Shown: positions 4,674 to 11,247 of the stretch, piece after piece
How the letters are laid out: every line of letters begins with the position of its first letter
Position numbering within the stretch: the stretch's first letter is position 1
Origin: Planctomycetota bacterium
GTDB taxonomy: Bacteria > Planctomycetota > UBA8108 > SXIK01
Assembly: GCA_965223845.1 (NCBI GenBank)
Contig: CBDCXR010000004.1
Location: 7,168,001 to 7,232,000, forward strand
Length of the DNA stretch: 64,000 bases
Direction: 5' to 3'
Program-made: the position numbers and the translations under genes
Notes under the pieces: generated by a model
Databases searched by the model: none
What the model saw: the letters and a program-made list of their open reading frames with translations, nothing else
What the model was told of the DNA's origin: nothing

Positions 4674-5366
4674 ATGCAGATTCCAGTGACGACGATCCCC
4701 GCTCCTCACCGTTCGACCATTGCCGTCTCGGCGTCTCGAGCTCGCGAGGAGTTTTTCAACAGCCTGACGCACGGCGTGGGATTCCTCCTTACGCTCTTCG
4801 GCGTCCCGGCCCTCATCGCCTGTGCCGCCGGGAATGGAGACGCGTGGACGCTCGTCGGCTGCTCCGTCTACGGCGGCGGGCTCACGGTCATGTATCTCGT
4901 GTCGACGATTTACCACGGTGTCGCCGCGCGACCGAGTCGTGACACCTGGCGGCGACTCGATCATATCTGCATCTTTCTCTTCATCGCCGCGACGTACACG
5001 CCGTTTGCGCTCGTCCACCTGCGCGGTCCTACGGGTTGGCTGATCCTGAGCGTCGTGTGGTCCATCGCACTCGTCGGCATCACCTGCAAGCTCGTCCTCG
5101 AGGTGAACTCGCACTGGGTGTCGACGGTCAGCTACGTGATCATGGGGTGGCTCTGCCTCCTCGTCGTCAAGCCGATGATCGAGTCGGTGCCGCTCGGTGC
5201 GGTGCTCTGGCTCTTTGCCGGAGGGGTGACGTACACGCTCGGAACGGTGTTCTACATCCGCGACCACCGCCCGTACTACCACGTGATTTGGCACTGTTTC
5301 GTGCTCGCCGGCAGCGCGTGTCACTACGTCGCGATCTATTCGTACGTCATTCCGCCGATCGCTTGA
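4674..5366 (+). CDS. Hemolysin III / PAQR family membrane protein
   Basis: EEFFNSLTHG, STIYH, RRLDHICIFLFIAATYTPF and HVIWHCFVLAGS motifs; about 7 TM helices. Confidence 0.93.
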   Translation: MQIPVTTIPAPHRSTIAVSASRAREEFFNSLTHGVGFLLTLFGVPALIACAAGNGDAWTLVGCSVYGGGLTVMYLVSTIYHGVAARPSRDTWRRLDHICIFLFIAATYTPFALVHLRGPTGWLILSVVWSIALVGITCKLVLEVNSHWVSTVSYVIMGWLCLLVVKPMIESVPLGAVLWLFAGGVTYTLGTVFYIRDHRPYYHVIWHCFVLAGSACHYVAIYSYVIPPIA

Positions 5367-5384
5367 TCGACCGGAAGCCGGTGT

Positions 5385-5822
5385 TCAGTCGAACGATCCG
5401 CTCGCGATCGCCTCGCGAATCCGCTTTTTGAGTTCGTCGCGGACGAGCCGCGCGGTGCGCAGTTGCTCGTCTTCGTCATCGATCGCGGCGGGATCGGGAA
5501 GCGGCCACCGGAGTCGGGTCACCTCGCCGGGGAACACCGGGCAGTCGCGATCCGCGTTGCTGCAGACGCTCACGATGACGTGTGGGGTGACTTCCGACGG
5601 CGGGAGAAACTCGTCGATGCTCTTCGAGCGATGCGCCGAAAGATCGATGCCGAGCTCGGCCATCACCGTCGTTGCAACCGTATGGATCGTACCGGACGGA
5701 CGCGCACCGGCGGATTGGGCGACATAGCGGTCGCCACCCTCGTGTCGGAGGAGGGCCTCGCCCATGTGGCTGCGACAGGAGTTTCCGGTGCAGAGAAATA
5801 AGACTCGTCTTCGTGCATCCAT
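5385..5822 (-). CDS. arsC: Arsenate reductase ArsC / LMW-PTP fold
   Basis: VLFLCTGNSCRSHM, VC..A...CPVFPG and WPLPDP motifs. Confidence 0.85.
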   Translation of the reverse strand: MDARRRVLFLCTGNSCRSHMGEALLRHEGGDRYVAQSAGARPSGTIHTVATTVMAELGIDLSAHRSKSIDEFLPPSEVTPHVIVSVCSNADRDCPVFPGEVTRLRWPLPDPAAIDDEDEQLRTARLVRDELKKRIREAIASGSFD

Positions 5823-5992
5823 GCTTCGCCTCGATGAGTTCGGTGCGTTTCCCGCGCGGGAGTGTACCCGATCGGTCGCGCGGGAGAACGTGGCGGATTC
5901 CTTCCGCCGCGCGCAATCCGAAGCCGCGGGCGTTCGCACCTCGCGACGTGTGGAGGCGTTGTTTGGCCTGCGGTTTTTCCTTATTTCTTGGC

Positions 5993-6021
5993 TTGACGAA
6001 GAGAATCGGAGCGTCTATCGT
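5993..6021 (+). promoter_or_regulatory. Sigma70-type promoter with AT-rich UP-like tract
   Basis: TTGACG (5993-5998), 17-bp spacer, TATCGT (6016-6021), preceded by TTTTTCCTTATTTCTT, which is unusual in this GC-rich DNA. Confidence 0.65.
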
Positions 6022-6027
6022 CGATTT

Positions 6028-6830
6028 CACTTGCGGGCGCAAAGGCGTCCGCTAAGAATCCGCGACCGGAACGGAAACGCGGGTTCGCGCTCCGGCGGTT
6101 CAGAGGCCGCGTCGAAACGAACGCGGGGTCAACGCCGGAGGTCGGAGGGCGCTCGGTCGCACCTCCTTGCAGAAGCTCAGGGTTGAGGCTCGGACAATCG
6201 CGCTCGATTCGCGTGCGCGACGGGGCGCCGAGCGGTCAATCGTATGGCCGACGCCGTCGAGAGCGGTTACCGGCCCGCGAATTCGAGTTGGCTTGAACAA
6301 GTCTCGACGCTTTGTCGAAGAGAGAAGAGGCCGAGAGGCGGTCTCGTCGGTTAAAAGAGGCGGCTGCACAGCCCGCACCGCCTGACCGAAGCCGCGACGA
6401 GAGTTTGCCACTGCCGCTAAGACACAGCTTCCCGACGTCAGCGGAACACGAACAGTCGCGGCGCCCCGTCGTCGCGCACCGGTCCGCTGAAGCGGAGCGC
6501 CGAGACGACTTAGATACACGGGCGCTTACAGAACCAGCGGGGACTGCGACCTGAATCCGGCGCGGTGCCGGCTGTAGAACGGCCGGCGATCGATGTCCGA
6601 CCTTCGACGCGACGGCAAAGGATTGCAGTCTCGGATCGACCGAGCGGTCGGCTGAACTCGTGCATGCTCGCACCGCGTGCATGCTGGTGACGGTCACCTG
6701 ACTCTTGCGAGTCGCGGTGACGGTCTCGAGTTGGGAAACACTGACGTGGACGCTACCCTCGTGACCTGTCGTCGTGAGGTCCGATGCGTGAGGGATCGAT
6801 GTCCGACCGAAGCGTTGCACGCATGCGAGA
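6028..6830 (+). ncRNA. Candidate large structured ncRNA or very long 5' leader (~800 nt), family unassigned
   Basis: No credible ORF; a continuous series of hairpins with G-U pairs; an 18-bp long-range helix (6213-6230 with 6459-6479); a repeated 15-mer; starts just after a sigma70 promoter. Confidence 0.5.
6588..6808 (+). repeat. Exact 15-bp direct repeat GATCGATGTCCGACC (6588-6602 and 6794-6808)
   Basis: Read directly from the sequence. A 10-mer, GGTGACGGTC, also repeats at 6686-6695 and 6716-6725. Confidence 0.8.
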
Positions 6831-6847
6831 ATTGAAGAGGCAGACGG

Positions 6848-9800
6848 TTGGCTAGCACGCCGAGCGACAAGTCCGCGAAGAAGAAGTCAAAGAAGAAGAC
6901 TTCGACCGGAACGAAGAAGAAGACGTCCAAGTCCGCGGCGACAAAGACGACGAAGTCGACATCGAAAAAGAAGAAGACGACGAAGAAGAAGGTAGCCAAG
7001 AAGACGGCGAAGAAGACGACCAAAAGGTCGGCATCGTCGTCGAGCCCGGCGTCTTCAAAGGCTAAGTCGTCGAAGAACGGGTCCGCGGCGACCGGTGCGA
7101 ACCCGAGCGACGCGCCCACGCCGCCGGAGGTCGCGGAGGGACGGGCCGCGCCGAGGCGATCGGGTGCTCGAAACGCCGGCGCGAACACCGCGCGAGACGA
7201 TGCGAGGTCGCGCTCCGGTGCACGGCCGGCTGCGCGCCGAACCGCAGACGCTAGACCCCGGACGAGTGACGCCGGGGACGCGCCCTCGTCCGGCTCGACT
7301 CGCTCGCCGCGCGATGTCGAGTCCTCGACGACCGTCGAGACGAGGAGCGCTCCTCCCGGCGACGCTCCCTCGCGGCGGGACTCTCGCTATCGCGGCCGAC
7401 GCGGTGAGCCGAGTGGGGGTTCGAACAATGGACGCGCGCCGAATCGTGGACCGCAGAGACGCCCGGCGTCCGGCCCGGGGGGACGCCGAGGTGGGAGGAG
7501 GCGCCCGCCCGGACAGCACGAGGCGCGGCGAGGTGCGTCTCCCGAAGGTGATCTCAACGGGCGCCGCGACGGTTCACCCGCTCGAACTCACTCCTCTCGA
7601 ACCGGGCCGAGCGCTCATCCTCAGCGCGGACGCGGTCCGCGACGTCGTCCCCATCCGCAGCGTTCGCCGCGCCGCCAGCACGGACATCGGGGCGCGCGCG
7701 GCCCGCGACTTCCGGATGGCCCGGCCGGTCTCGTCTACGTCGTCGACGCGAGCGCTCCGATCGGCTCGACCGGAGTCCTCCGCGTCTACTACCGTCAGCC
7801 GAGAGCGGGCGGCGGAGACGCGGGCCGCGGCTCGAAGCAGCAGCGACGGCGCACGGCGTCGTTGACGCCGCTCACCATCGATCGCCAGCTCAGTCGCCAC
7901 GCGAAGCACCCCCTCGACCACCGGATCACCGGCCTTCTTCTCCGCCTCCCGAGGCAGTCGAAGAGCGCGGCGCGCAAGAAGACGCGAGGCCCGCAGAGAA
8001 AAAAGGCTCGCACCAAAATCGTACCGGGAAGCGCCGTGACGGTGACGGAGAAGGCCTGGCGCACCCTGATGCCGTGGTTGCTCGAAACGAAGCGGTTCTT
8101 TCTGCTCCAGCCGGGGAGCCAGCAGCGCGCAGTCCCGGTCATCGAAGAGGAGCTCGTTCCGCTTCAGTTCCATCTTCTCCTCGAGCGCATCAAGAAGCGC
8201 GGCGACTTCCATCTCACCTGCCGCTTTGTGCGCGGTAACAAGACGCTTCTCTACAAGTCGCAAGTGCTCCTCATCACGGACGGCGAAGAGGGCATGTTGC
8301 TCCGGCGGTCGGGTCGTATCAGCAAGGTTCAGTTCGACGGCTCGGTCGCGTGGCTGAAGGCGCTTCGTCGCGGACGATTTCGCCACGTTCCGAAGCGCAA
8401 GATCGCCTCGCTCCTCAAGATCTTCGAGCGATCGACGACGCTGCCGATGGTGCACTTTCCGTCGGTGCTGCGCGTGAAGCCGATCGAGGGCGTCGAGCCG
8501 CGGCCCGAGCTCAAGCTCGATAGCGGCACGCAGGAAGTCGACGCGGAGGTGACCTTTCGCTACGGCGAAAACCTCGTGCGTGCCGCGCGTCCGGGGAAGC
8601 GGTTCTTCTCTCTCAAGCAGCGATGTCTCGTCGTACGCAACCTCGACGCCGAAGGCGCCCGCGCGGTCGAGCTCCTCCAGGCCGGCTTTACGTACGACAA
8701 CAACAAACACTCGTTCGGCCTCTCGGCGGATCTCCTCGTGACCGCGGCCCCCGCGCTGTTCGAGCTCGGGTGGACTCTGCACGGAAAGCGGATGCCGTTC
8801 CGTCCTCCGACCGGGATGGACGTCGACGTTACGACCGGACCCGACTACATCGATGTCGATGTGACGGTGAGGTTCGGCGACCAGAAGATCAAGGTGCCGC
8901 AGCTCCTCGAAGCGATGCGAGAGGGAAACCGGATGATTGTCCTCAAGCAGGGCGTCGTCGGTGTGCTCCCATCCGATTGGATCGAAAAGAATGCGGCGTG
9001 GATGGAGCTCGGTCAGCTCCACGGCGACAAGCTGAGACTTCGCCGCAACCAATCGTCGATGATCGACGCGCTCGTCGAAGAGAACATCAAGGCGCGGCTC
9101 GATCAGGGGTTCAGCTTCGAGAAGAATCGGCTCGAGGGATTCGAGGGCGTCGAGGAGTGCGACCCCACCGACGATTTCTGCGGCGAGCTGCGCGCCTACC
9201 AGCGATTCGGTCTCGGTTGGCTCCGCTTCCTCGACCGGATGGCGTGGGGCGGGTGTCTCGCCGACGATATGGGACTCGGAAAGACCGTGCAGGCCCTCGC
9301 GCTTCTCCAGCTCCACAAGGCGGACGGCCGCGAGGGGACGACGCTCGTCGTCGCGCCGAAATCGCTGATCTTCAACTGGGAGCGCGAGGCGAAGAAGTTC
9401 ACTCCGGATCTGCGCTGTGCGAGCTACCACGGTCCGAAGCGCGCGCAGCTCCTCGAATCGATCGAGGACTACGATCTCCTCTTCACGACCTACGGCACGG
9501 TACGCCAGGACGTCGAGATCCTCTCGCAGCAACAGTTCTTCTACGTGATCCTCGACGAAGCGCAGGCGATTAAGAACGTCGACTCGCAGAACTCGAAGTC
9601 GGCGCGACTCCTCAACGCCGAGCGGCGTCTGATTCTCAGTGGAACGCCGGTCGAGAACCACCTCGGCGAGCTCTGGTCGCTGTTCGATTTCATCAATCCC
9701 GGCATGCTCGGAACCTACGCCGCATTCAAGCGTCGATTCGGCGGGGAGCGCGGCGTCGACTCGGGCAGTCTCGCATTTCTCCGGCGGACGCTCCGGCCGT

Positions 9801-10564
9801 TTATCCTCCGGCGAAAGAAGGAGGAGGTCGCACCGGATCTGCCTCCGCGCTTCGAAGAGACGATCCTCTGCGAGATGGAATCGGAGCAGAAGAAGATCTA
9901 CCGCGAGCTGAAGGAGCGATGTCGAAACTCCGTGCTCGCGCAGGTCAAGGCGAAGGGGATGGCGCGGTCGAAGCTCCACATCCTCGAAGCGCTCCTCCGT
10001 CTCCGCCAGGCCGCTTGCCACCCGGCGCTCATCGACGAAAAGCACGGCGGCGCGGCGTCCGGCAAGATGACCGCCCTTCTCGGCATGCTCGAACAGGTCG
10101 AGGACGAAGGGCACAAGGTGCTCATCTTCTCGCAGTTCACCTCACTCCTCGCGCTCGTCCGAGAGCAGCTTGACGCGGCGGGGCAGGTGTACGAGTACCT
10201 CGACGGTCAGACGCGCGACCGCGCGGAACGCGTCGATCGCTTCCAGAACGATGATTCCTGCCGCGTGTTCCTGATCAGCCTCAAGGCGGGCGGCGTCGGA
10301 CTCAATCTCACCGCGGCGGACTACGTCTTCATTCTCGATCCGTGGTGGAACCCAGCCGTCGAAGCGCAGGCGATCGACCGGGCCCATCGCATTGGGCAAG
10401 ACAAGAAAGTCTTCGCGTACCGCTTCGTCTCCGAGTCGACGATCGAGGAGCGCATCGCCCAGATGCAGGAGTCGAAGCGAAAGCTCGCGGATGCGATCGT
10501 GAGTGCGGACGAGAACATCATGCGCGACATGACGAAAGAGGATCTCGAGGTCCTCTTCAGCTAG
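6848..10564 (+). CDS. SNF2-family (SWI2/SNF2) ATPase with Lys-rich and Arg/Gly-rich N-terminal extension
   Basis: LADDMGLGKT, ILDEAQ, LSGTPVEN, FSQF, SLKAGGVGLNL and DPWWNPAVEAQAIDRAHRIGQ motifs. TTG start with AGAGG 7 nt upstream. Confidence 0.95.
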   Translation: MASTPSDKSAKKKSKKKTSTGTKKKTSKSAATKTTKSTSKKKKTTKKKVAKKTAKKTTKRSASSSSPASSKAKSSKNGSAATGANPSDAPTPPEVAEGRAAPRRSGARNAGANTARDDARSRSGARPAARRTADARPRTSDAGDAPSSGSTRSPRDVESSTTVETRSAPPGDAPSRRDSRYRGRRGEPSGGSNNGRAPNRGPQRRPASGPGGRRGGRRRPPGQHEARRGASPEGDLNGRRDGSPARTHSSRTGPSAHPQRGRGPRRRPHPQRSPRRQHGHRGARGPRLPDGPAGLVYVVDASAPIGSTGVLRVYYRQPRAGGGDAGRGSKQQRRRTASLTPLTIDRQLSRHAKHPLDHRITGLLLRLPRQSKSAARKKTRGPQRKKARTKIVPGSAVTVTEKAWRTLMPWLLETKRFFLLQPGSQQRAVPVIEEELVPLQFHLLLERIKKRGDFHLTCRFVRGNKTLLYKSQVLLITDGEEGMLLRRSGRISKVQFDGSVAWLKALRRGRFRHVPKRKIASLLKIFERSTTLPMVHFPSVLRVKPIEGVEPRPELKLDSGTQEVDAEVTFRYGENLVRAARPGKRFFSLKQRCLVVRNLDAEGARAVELLQAGFTYDNNKHSFGLSADLLVTAAPALFELGWTLHGKRMPFRPPTGMDVDVTTGPDYIDVDVTVRFGDQKIKVPQLLEAMREGNRMIVLKQGVVGVLPSDWIEKNAAWMELGQLHGDKLRLRRNQSSMIDALVEENIKARLDQGFSFEKNRLEGFEGVEECDPTDDFCGELRAYQRFGLGWLRFLDRMAWGGCLADDMGLGKTVQALALLQLHKADGREGTTLVVAPKSLIFNWEREAKKFTPDLRCASYHGPKRAQLLESIEDYDLLFTTYGTVRQDVEILSQQQFFYVILDEAQAIKNVDSQNSKSARLLNAERRLILSGTPVENHLGELWSLFDFINPGMLGTYAAFKRRFGGERGVDSGSLAFLRRTLRPFILRRKKEEVAPDLPPRFEETILCEMESEQKKIYRELKERCRNSVLAQVKAKGMARSKLHILEALLRLRQAACHPALIDEKHGGAASGKMTALLGMLEQVEDEGHKVLIFSQFTSLLALVREQLDAAGQVYEYLDGQTRDRAERVDRFQNDDSCRVFLISLKAGGVGLNLTAADYVFILDPWWNPAVEAQAIDRAHRIGQDKKVFAYRFVSESTIEERIAQMQESKRKLADAIVSADENIMRDMTKEDLEVLFS

Positions 10565-10603
10565 ATCCGTCGCGAGCGGCTTCGCGAGCCCCGCTCGACG
10601 GAT
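10565..10603. terminator. Hairpin directly after the SNF2 stop, between convergent genes
   Basis: ATCCGTCGCGAGCGG pairs with CCGCTCGACGGAT (2-nt bulge); no clear U-tract. Confidence 0.45.
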
Positions 10604-10671
10604 TCACACGCGAAAGCGAGCGTTTGGCTCGATTCGATCCGCAGTGCGCGATTCCCTAGCGGCGCTGCCGA

Positions 10672-11151
10672 TCAGTGGGGCGGGGCCGCACCCCGCGACC
10701 ACCGGCGCCACGGCAGGAGCACACCGCTCTCCGCCCACCCGAGCTCGCCTCGGACCTCGAGGATGACGCGCACCGTCTTTCCCCCGTAGTCGCCGATCAG
10801 CTCTCGGCAACTGCCGCAGGGAGGGAGCACGAAGAGGCGTCCGTTGTGCTCTCTCGGTTTCGGATGGCGGATCGCGACGCACCCGACGATCGAGTCTTCG
10901 CCCGCCGTCATCGCCCGCCCGATGGCCACTTTTTCGGCACACACGGCGGGCTCGCCGATCACCCCCTGCAAGTGAACGCCGGCGTAGATGGCCCCCGTTC
11001 CGCCGCGGACGGCCGCGCCGACGTGGTGACGCCCCTCAGCGAAGCGGTGGGTAATGATCTCGGCGGCGGAGTCGTAGAGTTCCCGATCCACCGGCTCGAG
11101 CGGGAGGAGTGCCGGGAGTTCGAGCGCGCCAGGAAGGTGCGAGTCGGACAT
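10672..11151 (-). CDS. Cytidine deaminase family, blasticidin-S deaminase (Bsr)-like
   Basis: HHVGAAVR, VCAE, AIRHP and PCGSCRELI: a three-Cys zinc site with the catalytic Glu. Confidence 0.85.
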   Translation of the reverse strand: MSDSHLPGALELPALLPLEPVDRELYDSAAEIITHRFAEGRHHVGAAVRGGTGAIYAGVHLQGVIGEPAVCAEKVAIGRAMTAGEDSIVGCVAIRHPKPREHNGRLFVLPPCGSCRELIGDYGGKTVRVILEVRGELGWAESGVLLPWRRWSRGAAPPH

Positions 11152-11247
11152 GAGGTAGAGACGAGAGGGAAGTGTGGGGTCCCGAGTTATCGGCGGCGCT
11201 CGCCTAGCGGGCCCGGTTCCTTCTATCGTCCGAAGCGGCGTCCGTCC

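Follow-up and report, generated by a model that had tools for sequence, protein, structure and literature searches.

In a Planctomycetota bacterium (UBA8108; SXIK01; assembly GCA_965223845.1, contig CBDCXR010000004.1), the gene for an SNF2-family ATPase is preceded by a predicted untranslated leader of ~820 nt, which we regard, at a probability of roughly 55%, as a cis-acting regulatory 5' UTR that sets the level of the ATPase. The protein is best explained as having given up the SWIM zinc finger found in its paralogues, in place of which its N-terminus is strongly basic and disordered. Control of its own gene is the most likely role of the leader, more so than a part in an RNA-protein machine. 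The locus lies in a 64-kb stretch of DNA (positions 7,168,001-7,232,000 of the contig), the whole of which is referred to here as the window. A sigma-70-type promoter, ~820 nt without coding signal, a Shine-Dalgarno sequence, a TTG codon, the SNF2 gene and a stem-loop follow one another on the forward strand. This layout, described in the initial annotation, is real, and both flanking genes do lie on the opposite strand. The features, in window coordinates, are as follows:

5388-5822, reverse strand: upstream flanking gene for a low-molecular-weight phosphatase (LMWPc; Pfam PF01451, 57 bits)
5993-6021, forward strand: sigma-70-type promoter from the promoter scan (-35 TTGACG at 5993-5998, 17-nt spacer, -10 TATCGT at 6016-6021)
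6028-6847, forward strand: predicted ~820-nt untranslated 5' leader, with no codon periodicity and no Pfam or Rfam match
6033-6086, forward strand: two stable hairpins in the fold of the predicted 5' end (6033-6052 and 6056-6086)
6213-6230, forward strand: long-range inverted repeat, 5' arm (partner at 6459-6479)
6459-6479, forward strand: 3' arm of the same inverted repeat, pairing with 6213-6230
6588-6602, forward strand: direct repeat of 15 nt, the first of two identical copies
6794-6808, forward strand: second copy of the direct repeat, separated from the Shine-Dalgarno sequence downstream by 26 nt
6835-6840, forward strand: Shine-Dalgarno-like AAGAGG, read from the sequence, with 7 nt between it and the start codon
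6848-10564, forward strand: SNF2-family ATPase gene identified by its Pfam domains (TTG start at 6848, 1238 aa, stop codon at 10562-10564)
6848-7837, forward strand: N-terminal low-complexity basic region, identified by composition (aa 1-330)
8039-9112, forward strand: SNF2_assoc domain (aa 398-755; PF08455, 27.8 bits, cut-off 27)
9197-10396, forward strand: SNF2-related lobe (aa 784-1060; PF00176) and Helicase_C lobe (aa 1073-1183; PF00271)
10564-10604, forward strand: terminal stem-loop from folding, beginning at the final base of the stop codon, between convergent genes
10675-11151, reverse strand: downstream flanking gene, cytidine/deoxycytidylate deaminase-like (PF00383, 32.5 bits)

The LMWPc gene is divergent from the SNF2 gene, with its ATG 170 nt from the SNF2 promoter, and its codon periodicity persists to about 5800. 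The deaminase-like gene is convergent with the SNF2 gene and is also found downstream of it at the orthologue locus G003 and on the metagenome contig L050. The stem-loop between the two convergent genes is unremarkable (z -1.7; an equally good fold in 15 of 200 shuffles). It is not an intrinsic terminator of the usual form, a GC-rich stem followed by a U tract: the letters that follow it are ACACGCG, and the terminator scan does not report the site.

The promoter is the only promoter-like site in 5300-11200, a region for which dinucleotide shuffles give 0.2 +/- 0.5, and its motif, CTTGAC[GC]-N17/18-TAT[CT][CGT]T, occurs only three times in the entire 7.93-Mb genome, both strands counted together. 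The motif was found upstream of the gene in all six close orthologues with upstream sequence (the window counted among them), at distances from the inferred start of 826 nt in the window, 877 nt in G003, 834 nt in L057, 581 nt in G001, 854 nt in L053, and 774 nt in L052. Because the upstream neighbour gene is not the same across these loci, the promoter travels with the SNF2 gene. Judging from its position, transcription would begin about 7 nt past the -10 box, near 6028, and probably reads through from the leader into the SNF2 gene. Among the sequencing runs listed as containing this DNA there was no RNA run; the four listed belong to a single sample and study, probably the source itself. Neither a terminator-like site on the forward strand nor a second promoter-like site was found in 6021-6848, in scans that cover canonical terminators and sigma-70-like promoters and that other kinds of signal could escape. 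Further, the orthologues of the window's clade show no conserved block close to the start codon that might serve as a second promoter. The initial annotation had proposed that RNA and gene form a single transcription unit with no terminator between them; the second point is borne out by the scan, and the first is supported by a promoter kept in position and sequence together with the lack of an intervening terminator.

Codon periodicity is missing throughout 5824-6847 and present in the genes on either side. A non-periodic run of 1260 nt spans the gap and ties for 12th longest in the genome, in which 18 such runs reach at least 1200 nt and 49 reach at least 1000 nt. Several ORFs of 41-194 aa lie within the gap, and none of the five that were scanned matched a Pfam family; its GC content (0.64) is near the genome mean (0.65). 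At gathering thresholds, Rfam 15 returned no match in the whole 64-kb window and none at nine orthologue loci. At E<=10, two matches were returned for 5700-7100, both at E 7.7, on the reverse strand and far below gathering. No known riboswitch aptamer was thus found in the window's leader with Rfam.

Downstream of the leader, translation is predicted to begin at TTG 6848, the sole ATG, GTG, or TTG among the 334 codons at the head of the open frame; TTG or GTG starts are found in the window, in G003, and in the sister genus g5. The domain matches place the protein in the SNF2 family, with 231.5 bits for SNF2-rel_dom (cut-off 24.9) and 75.4 bits for Helicase_C (cut-off 23.5), and the Shine-Dalgarno sequence and SNF2 gene of the initial annotation are confirmed. 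Walker A (GxGKT) and DExx are ATPase motifs of SNF2 proteins, and both are present in the translation, as MGLGKT and LDEAQ. Among solved structures, the closest match is 1z63, the SNF2/Rad54 ATPase core from Sulfolobus (E 9e-99). With SNF2_assoc upstream of the ATPase, the protein belongs with the bacterial SNF2_assoc-type helicases, although the PF08455 match that places it there is marginal in score (352 of 373 profile positions covered). Residues 1-75 are Lys-rich (27 K) and residues 76-330 are rich in Arg, Gly, and Pro (51 R), for a net charge of +59 over residues 1-330. No Pfam family, including the SWIM zinc finger, was found in these residues at E<=0.1. The basic tail that had been noted earlier therefore exists and is strongly basic, but it is N-terminal (aa 1-330) and not C-terminal. 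Among orthologues its composition is kept and its sequence is not.

Two functional assignments known for bacterial SNF2 proteins were considered. An anti-phage SNF2 helicase was rejected, since NCBIfam equivalog scores fall below their cut-offs for ZorD (230 versus 1500), DrmD (75 versus 950), and DpdE (65 versus 500), and the gene's neighbours in the window are HlyIII, LMWPc, and the deaminase. PADLOC matches begin at residue 654 or later (the best five at 654-768) and lie mainly on the ATPase part. RapA (HepA) is the SNF2-family RNA polymerase recycling factor of E. coli; it is likewise a bacterial SNF2-family ATPase, but its N-terminal architecture differs and the window's protein reaches 29.6 bits against the RapA equivalog cut-off of 576. 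For RapA, no leader RNA is known to us from the literature.

The long leader is shared by the orthologues of this gene. Lengths, which are approximate because gene starts were inferred (a plausible ATG, GTG, or TTG near the head of the open frame, with gene ends from ORF and GC3 heuristics), are 774-877 nt in five of the six close orthologues and 581 nt in G001. Four-fold-site identity between close orthologues is 0.34-0.43, indicating that synonymous sites are saturated. Orthologues of the sister family f2 have a conserved promoter of another kind (TGTATTATGCT, preceded by a T-rich block), which stands 447-660 nt upstream in seven loci from four genera and on one metagenome contig, and all sister-family orthologues examined have a long leader. 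By comparison, paralogues that bear SWIM, which are 41-45% identical to the window's protein over about 800-900 residues (477 residues for the copy in its own genome), have an upstream gap of at most ~340 nt in seven of seven evaluable loci (nine were fetched). A Pfam SWIM match was obtained in all three paralogues tested, at 21.3, 18.8, and 13.2 bits, of which only the first passes the cut-off of 19.6 bits. From the long gaps in orthologues and sister family and the short gaps in the paralogues, it follows that the long leader goes with the clade that lacks SWIM and has a basic N-terminus: the two occur together in every orthologue examined and in no SWIM paralogue. The co-occurrence of leader and SNF2 orthologue that had been put forward as a check on the initial annotation was therefore observed.

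This persistence of length is not matched by persistence of sequence. Smith-Waterman comparison of the window's leader with those of G003 and L057 gave local scores of 25-28 against shuffle maxima of 28-30, global MAFFT identity was 0.42-0.43 against 0.43 for shuffles, and blastn (word size 7) and nhmmer among the three leaders revealed nothing in common outside the promoter. When 41 related genomes were searched with the leader by BLASTn, no homologue was recovered; five matches besides the window itself (24-33 nt, E 0.002-0.006, in unrelated places), none of them in the three genomes of the same family, were treated as noise. The metagenome and genome collections that were searched likewise contained no alignable homologue, and no relative in them was closer than 79% protein identity. 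The window's leader thus evolves as if neutral at the distance between genera, whereas the ATPase is 76-79% identical at that distance, and this difference argues against a precise RNA-protein machine.

The initial annotation also described the ~800 nt as a structured region; for the window this was not confirmed, given the absence of an Rfam match and of an orthologue alignment and folding energies within the range of controls. The fold of 6028-6090 (-33 kcal/mol, z -3.8) is equalled in stability by 1 of 200 shuffles, and the corresponding 5'-end fold has a z of -3.75 in G003 and of -1.7 to +1.0 in the other four orthologues. The arms of the inverted repeat pair perfectly over 13 bp and an overlapping or adjacent 10 bp and are used in the minimum free energy (MFE) fold; a perfect inverted repeat of at least 13 bp arises in 8 of 500 shuffles. 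A mobile-element origin of the repeat was rejected, as its arms are unique in the genome. A direct repeat of at least 15 nt arises in 1 of 500 shuffles, and the genome holds just the two exact copies listed above. The MFE z of the full-length leader is -2.8 with 20 shuffles and -2.6 with 40 (antisense -1.7 and -1.9). Its mean z over 200-nt windows, -1.35, is reached on at least one strand by three of nine control stretches, likewise long and non-coding, from elsewhere in the genome. It should be noted that folding energy does not discriminate as a test of structure, since the covariation-supported leader of g5 itself has a mean window z of -0.33.

In that sister genus, the first ~290 nt of the g5 leader are 73-77% identical among three lineages, as compared with 49-53% at the four-fold sites of the adjoining gene. 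In this core, 95.9% of cells pair, and 13 pairs are changed on both sides, where shuffles give 8.3 +/- 1.7 and slid controls 1-6, a covariation drawn from three independent lineages only. In the linker that follows, lineage B looks neutral, sharing 49-51% identity with A and C, while A and C are 77% identical to each other. These comparisons indicate that the g5 core is clearly under selection for sequence and base pairing, and the ~290-nt element, which is absent from Rfam 15, is put forward as a new candidate structured RNA. It is present as one copy per genome in all ten g5 genomes and adjoins the SNF2 gene in the nine that could be checked, RNA and gene being on different contigs in the tenth. 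Since the window's leader is also single-copy in its own genome, no leader copy was found next to an unrelated gene, an arrangement that would have spoken against the pairing proposed in the initial annotation. Among the genomes searched, the g5 RNA is confined to one genus. A model built from it (R1; 288 positions, 78 pairs) and used to search 27 sources gave no match at E<=10 in the leaders of the window, G003, or L057 and four weak matches elsewhere. A weak partial match (E 0.2) in the leader of L056 fits a family-level similarity of the first hairpin.

Taken as a regulatory 5' UTR, the leader could work as follows. The promoter at 5993-6021 would drive the ~820-nt leader and then the SNF2 gene as one transcription unit, and the leader would control the stability of the mRNA and the access of ribosomes to a weak TTG start. 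It would do so through an RNA structure that evolves fast between genera, and one candidate reader of that structure is the SNF2 protein itself, which would make the control autoregulatory. This reading draws on the promoter kept among the orthologues, the other promoter kept in f2, the restriction of the long leader to this clade, the length of the gap, the selection seen in g5, the lack of a terminator-like site, the TTG or GTG starts, the 5' hairpins of the window and G003, and internal repeats that shuffles seldom produce. Against it stand the dissimilarity of the window's leader to those of G003 and L057, its ordinary folding energy, and the lack of an Rfam or R1 match. A more elaborate version, in which the SWIM finger was exchanged for the basic, disordered N-terminus as a leader of 0.45-0.9 kb was gained, and in which the protein binds the leader, or a 5' piece released from it by processing, for feedback or as a cofactor, is rather unlikely.

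That the leader has no specific role, the promoter simply lying far upstream and ~820 nt being tolerated as a spacer, is unlikely as well. The comparison of leaders between genera is indeed no better than that of shuffled sequence, other non-coding stretches fold as stably, and long non-coding stretches are many in planctomycetes, as the 49 runs mentioned above illustrate. Nevertheless, bacterial genomes generally lose useless DNA, and in five of six close orthologues the length has been kept despite saturated synonymous sites; the short gaps of the paralogue clade and the clear selection on the g5 core also tell against a mere spacer. Small proteins encoded in the gap, or what is left of a gene that has decayed, such as a lost 5' part that encoded SWIM, might seem to fit the ORFs in the gap and its genome-like GC content. 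This reading was rejected as very improbable on the lack of codon periodicity, the empty Pfam scan, and a tblastx comparison among six leaders that found nothing outside the 75 nt nearest the promoter in G001 and L053. Moreover, the N-termini of the SWIM clade have no convincing match in leaders (for the window's leader, E 0.089 at best).

Two further alternatives treat the RNA as an entity in its own right. The leader, either whole or cut down by processing, could be a scaffold or guide acting in trans and bound through the basic N-terminus as a ribonucleoprotein, which is close to what the initial annotation envisaged. The strict co-occurrence of long leader and SWIM-less, basic-N-terminus clade and the charge of +59 over 330 residues would suit it, as would the discrete g5 core with its neutral-like linker in lineage B, which is what a separable RNA might look like. 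Against it, a specific interface is normally conserved, and between genera leader and basic N-terminus, unlike the ATPase, are not conserved in sequence; in addition, no terminator or processing signal that could release the RNA was found. We consider this arrangement improbable. The same holds for a separate non-coding RNA that starts at the 5993 promoter and ends before 6848, with the SNF2 gene served by a nearer promoter of its own: it would be compatible with the restriction of g5 conservation to the 5' ~290 nt and with scans that saw only sigma-70-like promoters and canonical terminators, but those scans detected neither a terminator-like site nor a second promoter-like site in 6021-6848, and the window's clade has no conserved promoter-like block near the start codon. 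Regulation of the SNF2 gene by its own leader is accordingly preferred over each of these alternatives.

Precedents exist for parts of the proposed control. The rne leader of E. coli, of ~360 nt (rne5 and rne-II in Rfam), and the Rho leader are long autoregulatory 5' UTRs. By analogy, the window combines a long, possibly partly structured leader with the gene for a nucleic-acid enzyme with which it would be co-transcribed, so that feedback is plausible; it differs from these leaders in having no sequence or Rfam relation to them, in being more than twice as long as that of rne, and in that the gene encodes an SNF2 ATPase. The helicases that combine SWIM, SNF2_assoc, and SNF2 domains, one of which is encoded elsewhere in the same genome, share the core of SNF2_assoc, SNF2-related, and Helicase_C domains with the window's protein; they have a SWIM-like zinc finger and short gaps, whereas the window's protein has no SWIM, a basic N-terminus, and a long leader. 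Eukaryotic SNF2 remodellers have been reported to bind long non-coding RNAs, and such pairs resemble the ribonucleoprotein idea; the RNAs in question come from genes of their own and act in chromatin, whereas the candidate RNA here is the gene's own leader. Bacterial RNA motifs proposed from comparative genomics rest on conservation, compensatory pairs, and a fixed gene neighbour (Weinberg et al., 2010; PMC2864571). The g5 core is alike in being a conserved ~290-nt element with compensatory pairs and a fixed neighbour, and evidence of this kind concerns the g5 core and not the window's own leader. Passages of PMC8567305 and PMC2864571 gave nothing on an SNF2 leader RNA, and the supplementary motif lists of the latter might hold a related motif. 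A full-text literature search returned no description of a leader RNA for an SNF2-family motor.

A promoter fixed 0.45-0.9 kb upstream, only in the clade that lacks SWIM and has a basic N-terminus, is a lineage-wide trait, and the paralogues with and without a leader offer a natural comparison. Few bacterial genes have leaders that are both long and conserved, and those that do are usually under tight post-transcriptional control, examples being rne, rho, and ribosomal protein operons. A link between SNF2 proteins and RNA has so far been known mainly from eukaryotic chromatin remodellers. If the SNF2 protein does read its leader, bacterial SNF2 motors would be linked to RNA as well, and a protein that binds its own leader would constitute the first bacterial SNF2-RNA pair.

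The locus belongs to a planctomycete genome of 7.93 Mb and 65% G+C, of which one further contig, C1 (15,005 nt), has a G+C of 0.48 against 0.65 in the main contig and could be plasmid, phage or contaminant DNA. The features of the locus are as follows.

5388-5822, minus strand: LMWPc phosphatase gene, upstream of the gap
5993-6021, plus strand: promoter
6028-6847, plus strand: predicted leader (~820 nt)
6848-10564, plus strand: SNF2 ATPase gene, a 1238-codon frame opening with TTG
10564-10604: stem-loop after the SNF2 stop codon, without a U tract (an equally stable fold in 15 of 200 shuffles)
Downstream of the SNF2 gene, minus strand: deaminase-like gene, converging

Codon periodicity was absent from every frame of 5824-6847 and present in the genes to either side of it. 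The non-periodic run that includes this gap (5631-6890, 1260 nt) is the joint 12th longest in the genome, where 18 runs reach at least 1200 nt and 49 at least 1000 nt. Consensus scans returned a single promoter-like site in 5300-11200, that at 5993-6021 (shuffles 0.2 +/- 0.5), and no terminator-like site on the plus strand between it and the start codon. This layout, with one promoter-like site, no terminator-like site before the gene, a terminal stem-loop and a convergent deaminase gene, therefore upholds the anatomy drawn in the initial annotation, namely a promoter, a region of ~800 nt, a Shine-Dalgarno site, the SNF2 gene and a terminal hairpin in order on one strand, between flanking genes on the other. 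Leader and gene are probably transcribed as one unit.

Upstream regions of SNF2 orthologues were first read by eye and then scanned with the promoter pattern, which was present in all six close orthologues with upstream sequence (window counted); start codons of the orthologues were inferred, and the distances below are therefore approximate.

Promoter CTTGAC[GC]-N17/18-TAT[CT][CGT]T and its distance to the inferred SNF2 start codon
Window: 826 nt
G003 (related genome): 877 nt
L057 (metagenome contig): 834 nt
G001 (related genome): 581 nt
L053 (metagenome contig): 854 nt
L052: 774 nt

The pattern occurs three times in the whole genome, both strands counted. In G001 and L053 another gene, co-directional with SNF2, takes the upstream position; the promoter is therefore that of the SNF2 gene. 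In sister family f2, a conserved but different promoter (TGTATTATGCT after a T-rich block) stands 447-660 nt before the start in seven loci, drawn from four genera plus one metagenome contig.

The start at TTG 6848 is the sole ATG, GTG or TTG within the first 334 codons of the SNF2 frame; AAGAGG stands 7 nt 5' of it, and third-position G+C rises to about 0.8 exactly there. The protein carries the following Pfam domains.

Residues 398-755: SNF2_assoc, 27.8 bits (cut-off 27)
Residues 784-1060: SNF2-rel_dom, 231.5 bits
Residues 1073-1183: Helicase_C, 75.4 bits

Among solved structures, the Sulfolobus SNF2/Rad54 ATPase core comes closest (1z63, E 9e-99). No NCBIfam equivalog, RapA, ZorD, DrmD and DpdE included, was matched at cut-off, and PADLOC matches fell mainly on the ATPase part. 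Residues 1-330 matched no Pfam family and are of low complexity and very basic (net charge +59), with 27 Lys in residues 1-75 and 51 Arg in residues 76-330; the basic "tail" of the initial annotation is thus present, at the N-terminus. Within the Arg/Gly/Pro-rich stretch at 7400-7700, G+C periodicity is inverted (about 0.57 at third positions, about 0.8 at the other two), which fits the amino-acid bias; a frame problem is conceivable, but orthologues have the same frame there. An 846-codon open frame antisense to the gene (7574-10114, minus strand) is taken as the usual high-G+C artifact.

The SNF2 protein is 76% identical to its orthologue in G003, 75-79% to those of metagenome contigs L057 and L050, 67-72% to those of G001 and metagenome relatives, and 57-63% to those of f2. 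Overlapping N-terminal pieces of L057 and L050 are identical, and the two may come from one organism. The order HlyIII (plus), LMWPc (minus), gap, SNF2 (plus), deaminase (minus) is common to the window and L057/L050, and G003 shares HlyIII and deaminase. All these orthologues keep a long, basic, low-complexity N-terminus, the sequence of which differs. The closest protein relatives are the SWIM-SNF2_assoc-SNF2 helicases, a paralogous clade (41-45% identical) with a second copy in the window's genome (L094, G000:C4:3746000-3753000) and others at L086-L093. Its N-terminus holds a SWIM-like zinc finger, seen by eye and matched by Pfam SWIM in three of three paralogues tested (21.3, 18.8 and 13.2 bits, of which only the first passes the cut-off); the window's clade has no SWIM, and no SWIM-coding remnant was detectable in any leader. 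Of nine paralogue loci fetched, two of low GC were not evaluable by the heuristic used, and the other seven all have upstream gaps of at most about 340 nt. Given these short gaps and the long leaders of SWIM-less orthologues, the long leader tracks the SWIM-less clade with a basic N-terminus, in favor of the co-occurrence that the initial annotation proposed to test.

The leader is single-copy in its own genome, and BLASTn against 40 related genomes yielded nothing beyond five chance matches of 24-33 nt. The window, G003 and L057 have leaders without similarity to one another: blastn and nhmmer found none, local alignment scores were 25-28 against shuffle maxima of 28-30, and global identity was 0.42-0.43 against 0.43 in shuffles; four-fold sites of the SNF2 gene are saturated over this distance (identity 0.34-0.43). 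About 75 nt just 3' of the promoter are alike in G001 (L038, about 394-456) and L053 (about 401-463), by eye and by tblastx (E 4e-5), a hint of an element of the 5' leader that this subclade conserves.

The description of the leader as structured was not confirmed in the window itself. Rfam 15 gave no match at gathering in the whole window and, at E<=10 around the leader, only two matches of E 7.7, both on the wrong strand. The full-length leader folds at -388 kcal/mol (z -2.8 with 20 shuffles, -2.6 with 40) and its antisense strand at z -1.7 and -1.9. Over windows of 200 nt, z averages -1.35. Nine other long non-periodic stretches were chosen at random from the genome, and three of them reach that value on at least one strand; the covariation-supported leader of g5, one genus of f2, averages only -0.33 by this measure. 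Folding energy therefore decides nothing. Locally, three features are conspicuous. Two hairpins occupy the first 63 nt past the predicted start (z -3.8; 1 of 200 shuffles as stable). An inverted repeat pairs 6213-6230 with 6459-6479 (a perfect repeat of at least 13 bp arose in 8 of 500 shuffles), and a 15-nt exact direct repeat lies at 6588-6602 and 6794-6808 (that length in only 1 of 500). Both are found nowhere else in the genome, and a mobile element was therefore ruled out. The second direct copy ends 26 nt 5' of the Shine-Dalgarno site, and the copies might alternately pair with a complement near 6141-6147 (6133-6155; inverted repeat I1, 74% complementary), so that a switch between two pairings is conceivable.

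In g5, an alignment of eight genomes from three lineages shows 73-77% identity between lineages over the first ~290 nt of the leader, against 49-53% at the four-fold sites of SNF2 next to it; in the 3' part of the leader, lineage B is 49-51% identical to the other two. The g5 leader is, on this sequence evidence, under selection. RNAalifold on the whole leader gave 106 pairs, with compensatory changes in 24. In the core (MAFFT alignment), 95.9% of cells pair and 13 of 78 pairs show two-sided changes. Shuffles give 8.3 +/- 1.7 such pairs, with 13 attained in 3 of 500, and slid controls give 1-6.

L042:4115-4402, minus strand: g5 leader core (~290 nt), 5'-terminal in the SNF2 leader, with equivalents in L043-L049, L095 and L096

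A covariance model of this core found exactly one copy in each of ten g5 genomes (two outside model building), just upstream of the SNF2 gene wherever the contig permits the check, and none in four other f2 genomes; it matched no Rfam family and did not match the window's leader. Between f2 genera (proteins 64-75% identical), the promoter and first hairpin are the only recognizable leader parts. With a protein identity of 0.76, the window and G003 stand at a similar distance, and leader dissimilarity in the window's clade therefore leaves room for a core conserved at genus level.

The reading that we favor, at a probability of about 0.55, is a 5' UTR: the conserved promoter would transcribe the ~820 nt together with the SNF2 mRNA, and the leader would influence, in cis, both the stability of the mRNA and initiation at the weak TTG codon, by means of structure with a rapid turnover between genera. 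A spacer without function is a distinctly weaker alternative, to be set beside both the shuffle-level identity of the window's leader to its relatives and the selection on the g5 leader. It is doubtful that the leader RNA is a trans-acting partner of the protein, as the initial annotation proposed; leader and basic N-terminus occur together, but both lose their sequence where the motor domains keep theirs, and there is no mark of RNA release, which argues against a precise ribonucleoprotein. Equally improbable is a separate RNA gene followed by an SNF2 gene with a second, unseen promoter, given one promoter-like site and no terminator-like site. A coding sequence hidden in the gap is the least credible proposal: none of five open frames scanned there matched Pfam, and tblastx found no common peptide when leaders from the window, G003 and L057 were compared.

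For a cis-acting leader, one candidate reader would be the SNF2 protein itself, by feedback. In function, the SNF2 leader would come closest to the long, autoregulatory ones of rne and rho. Full-text literature searches turned up no description of a leader RNA for an SNF2 gene. The SNF2 leader would belong to a known kind, the cis-acting leader, and the ~290-nt element of the sister genus is a candidate new RNA motif.
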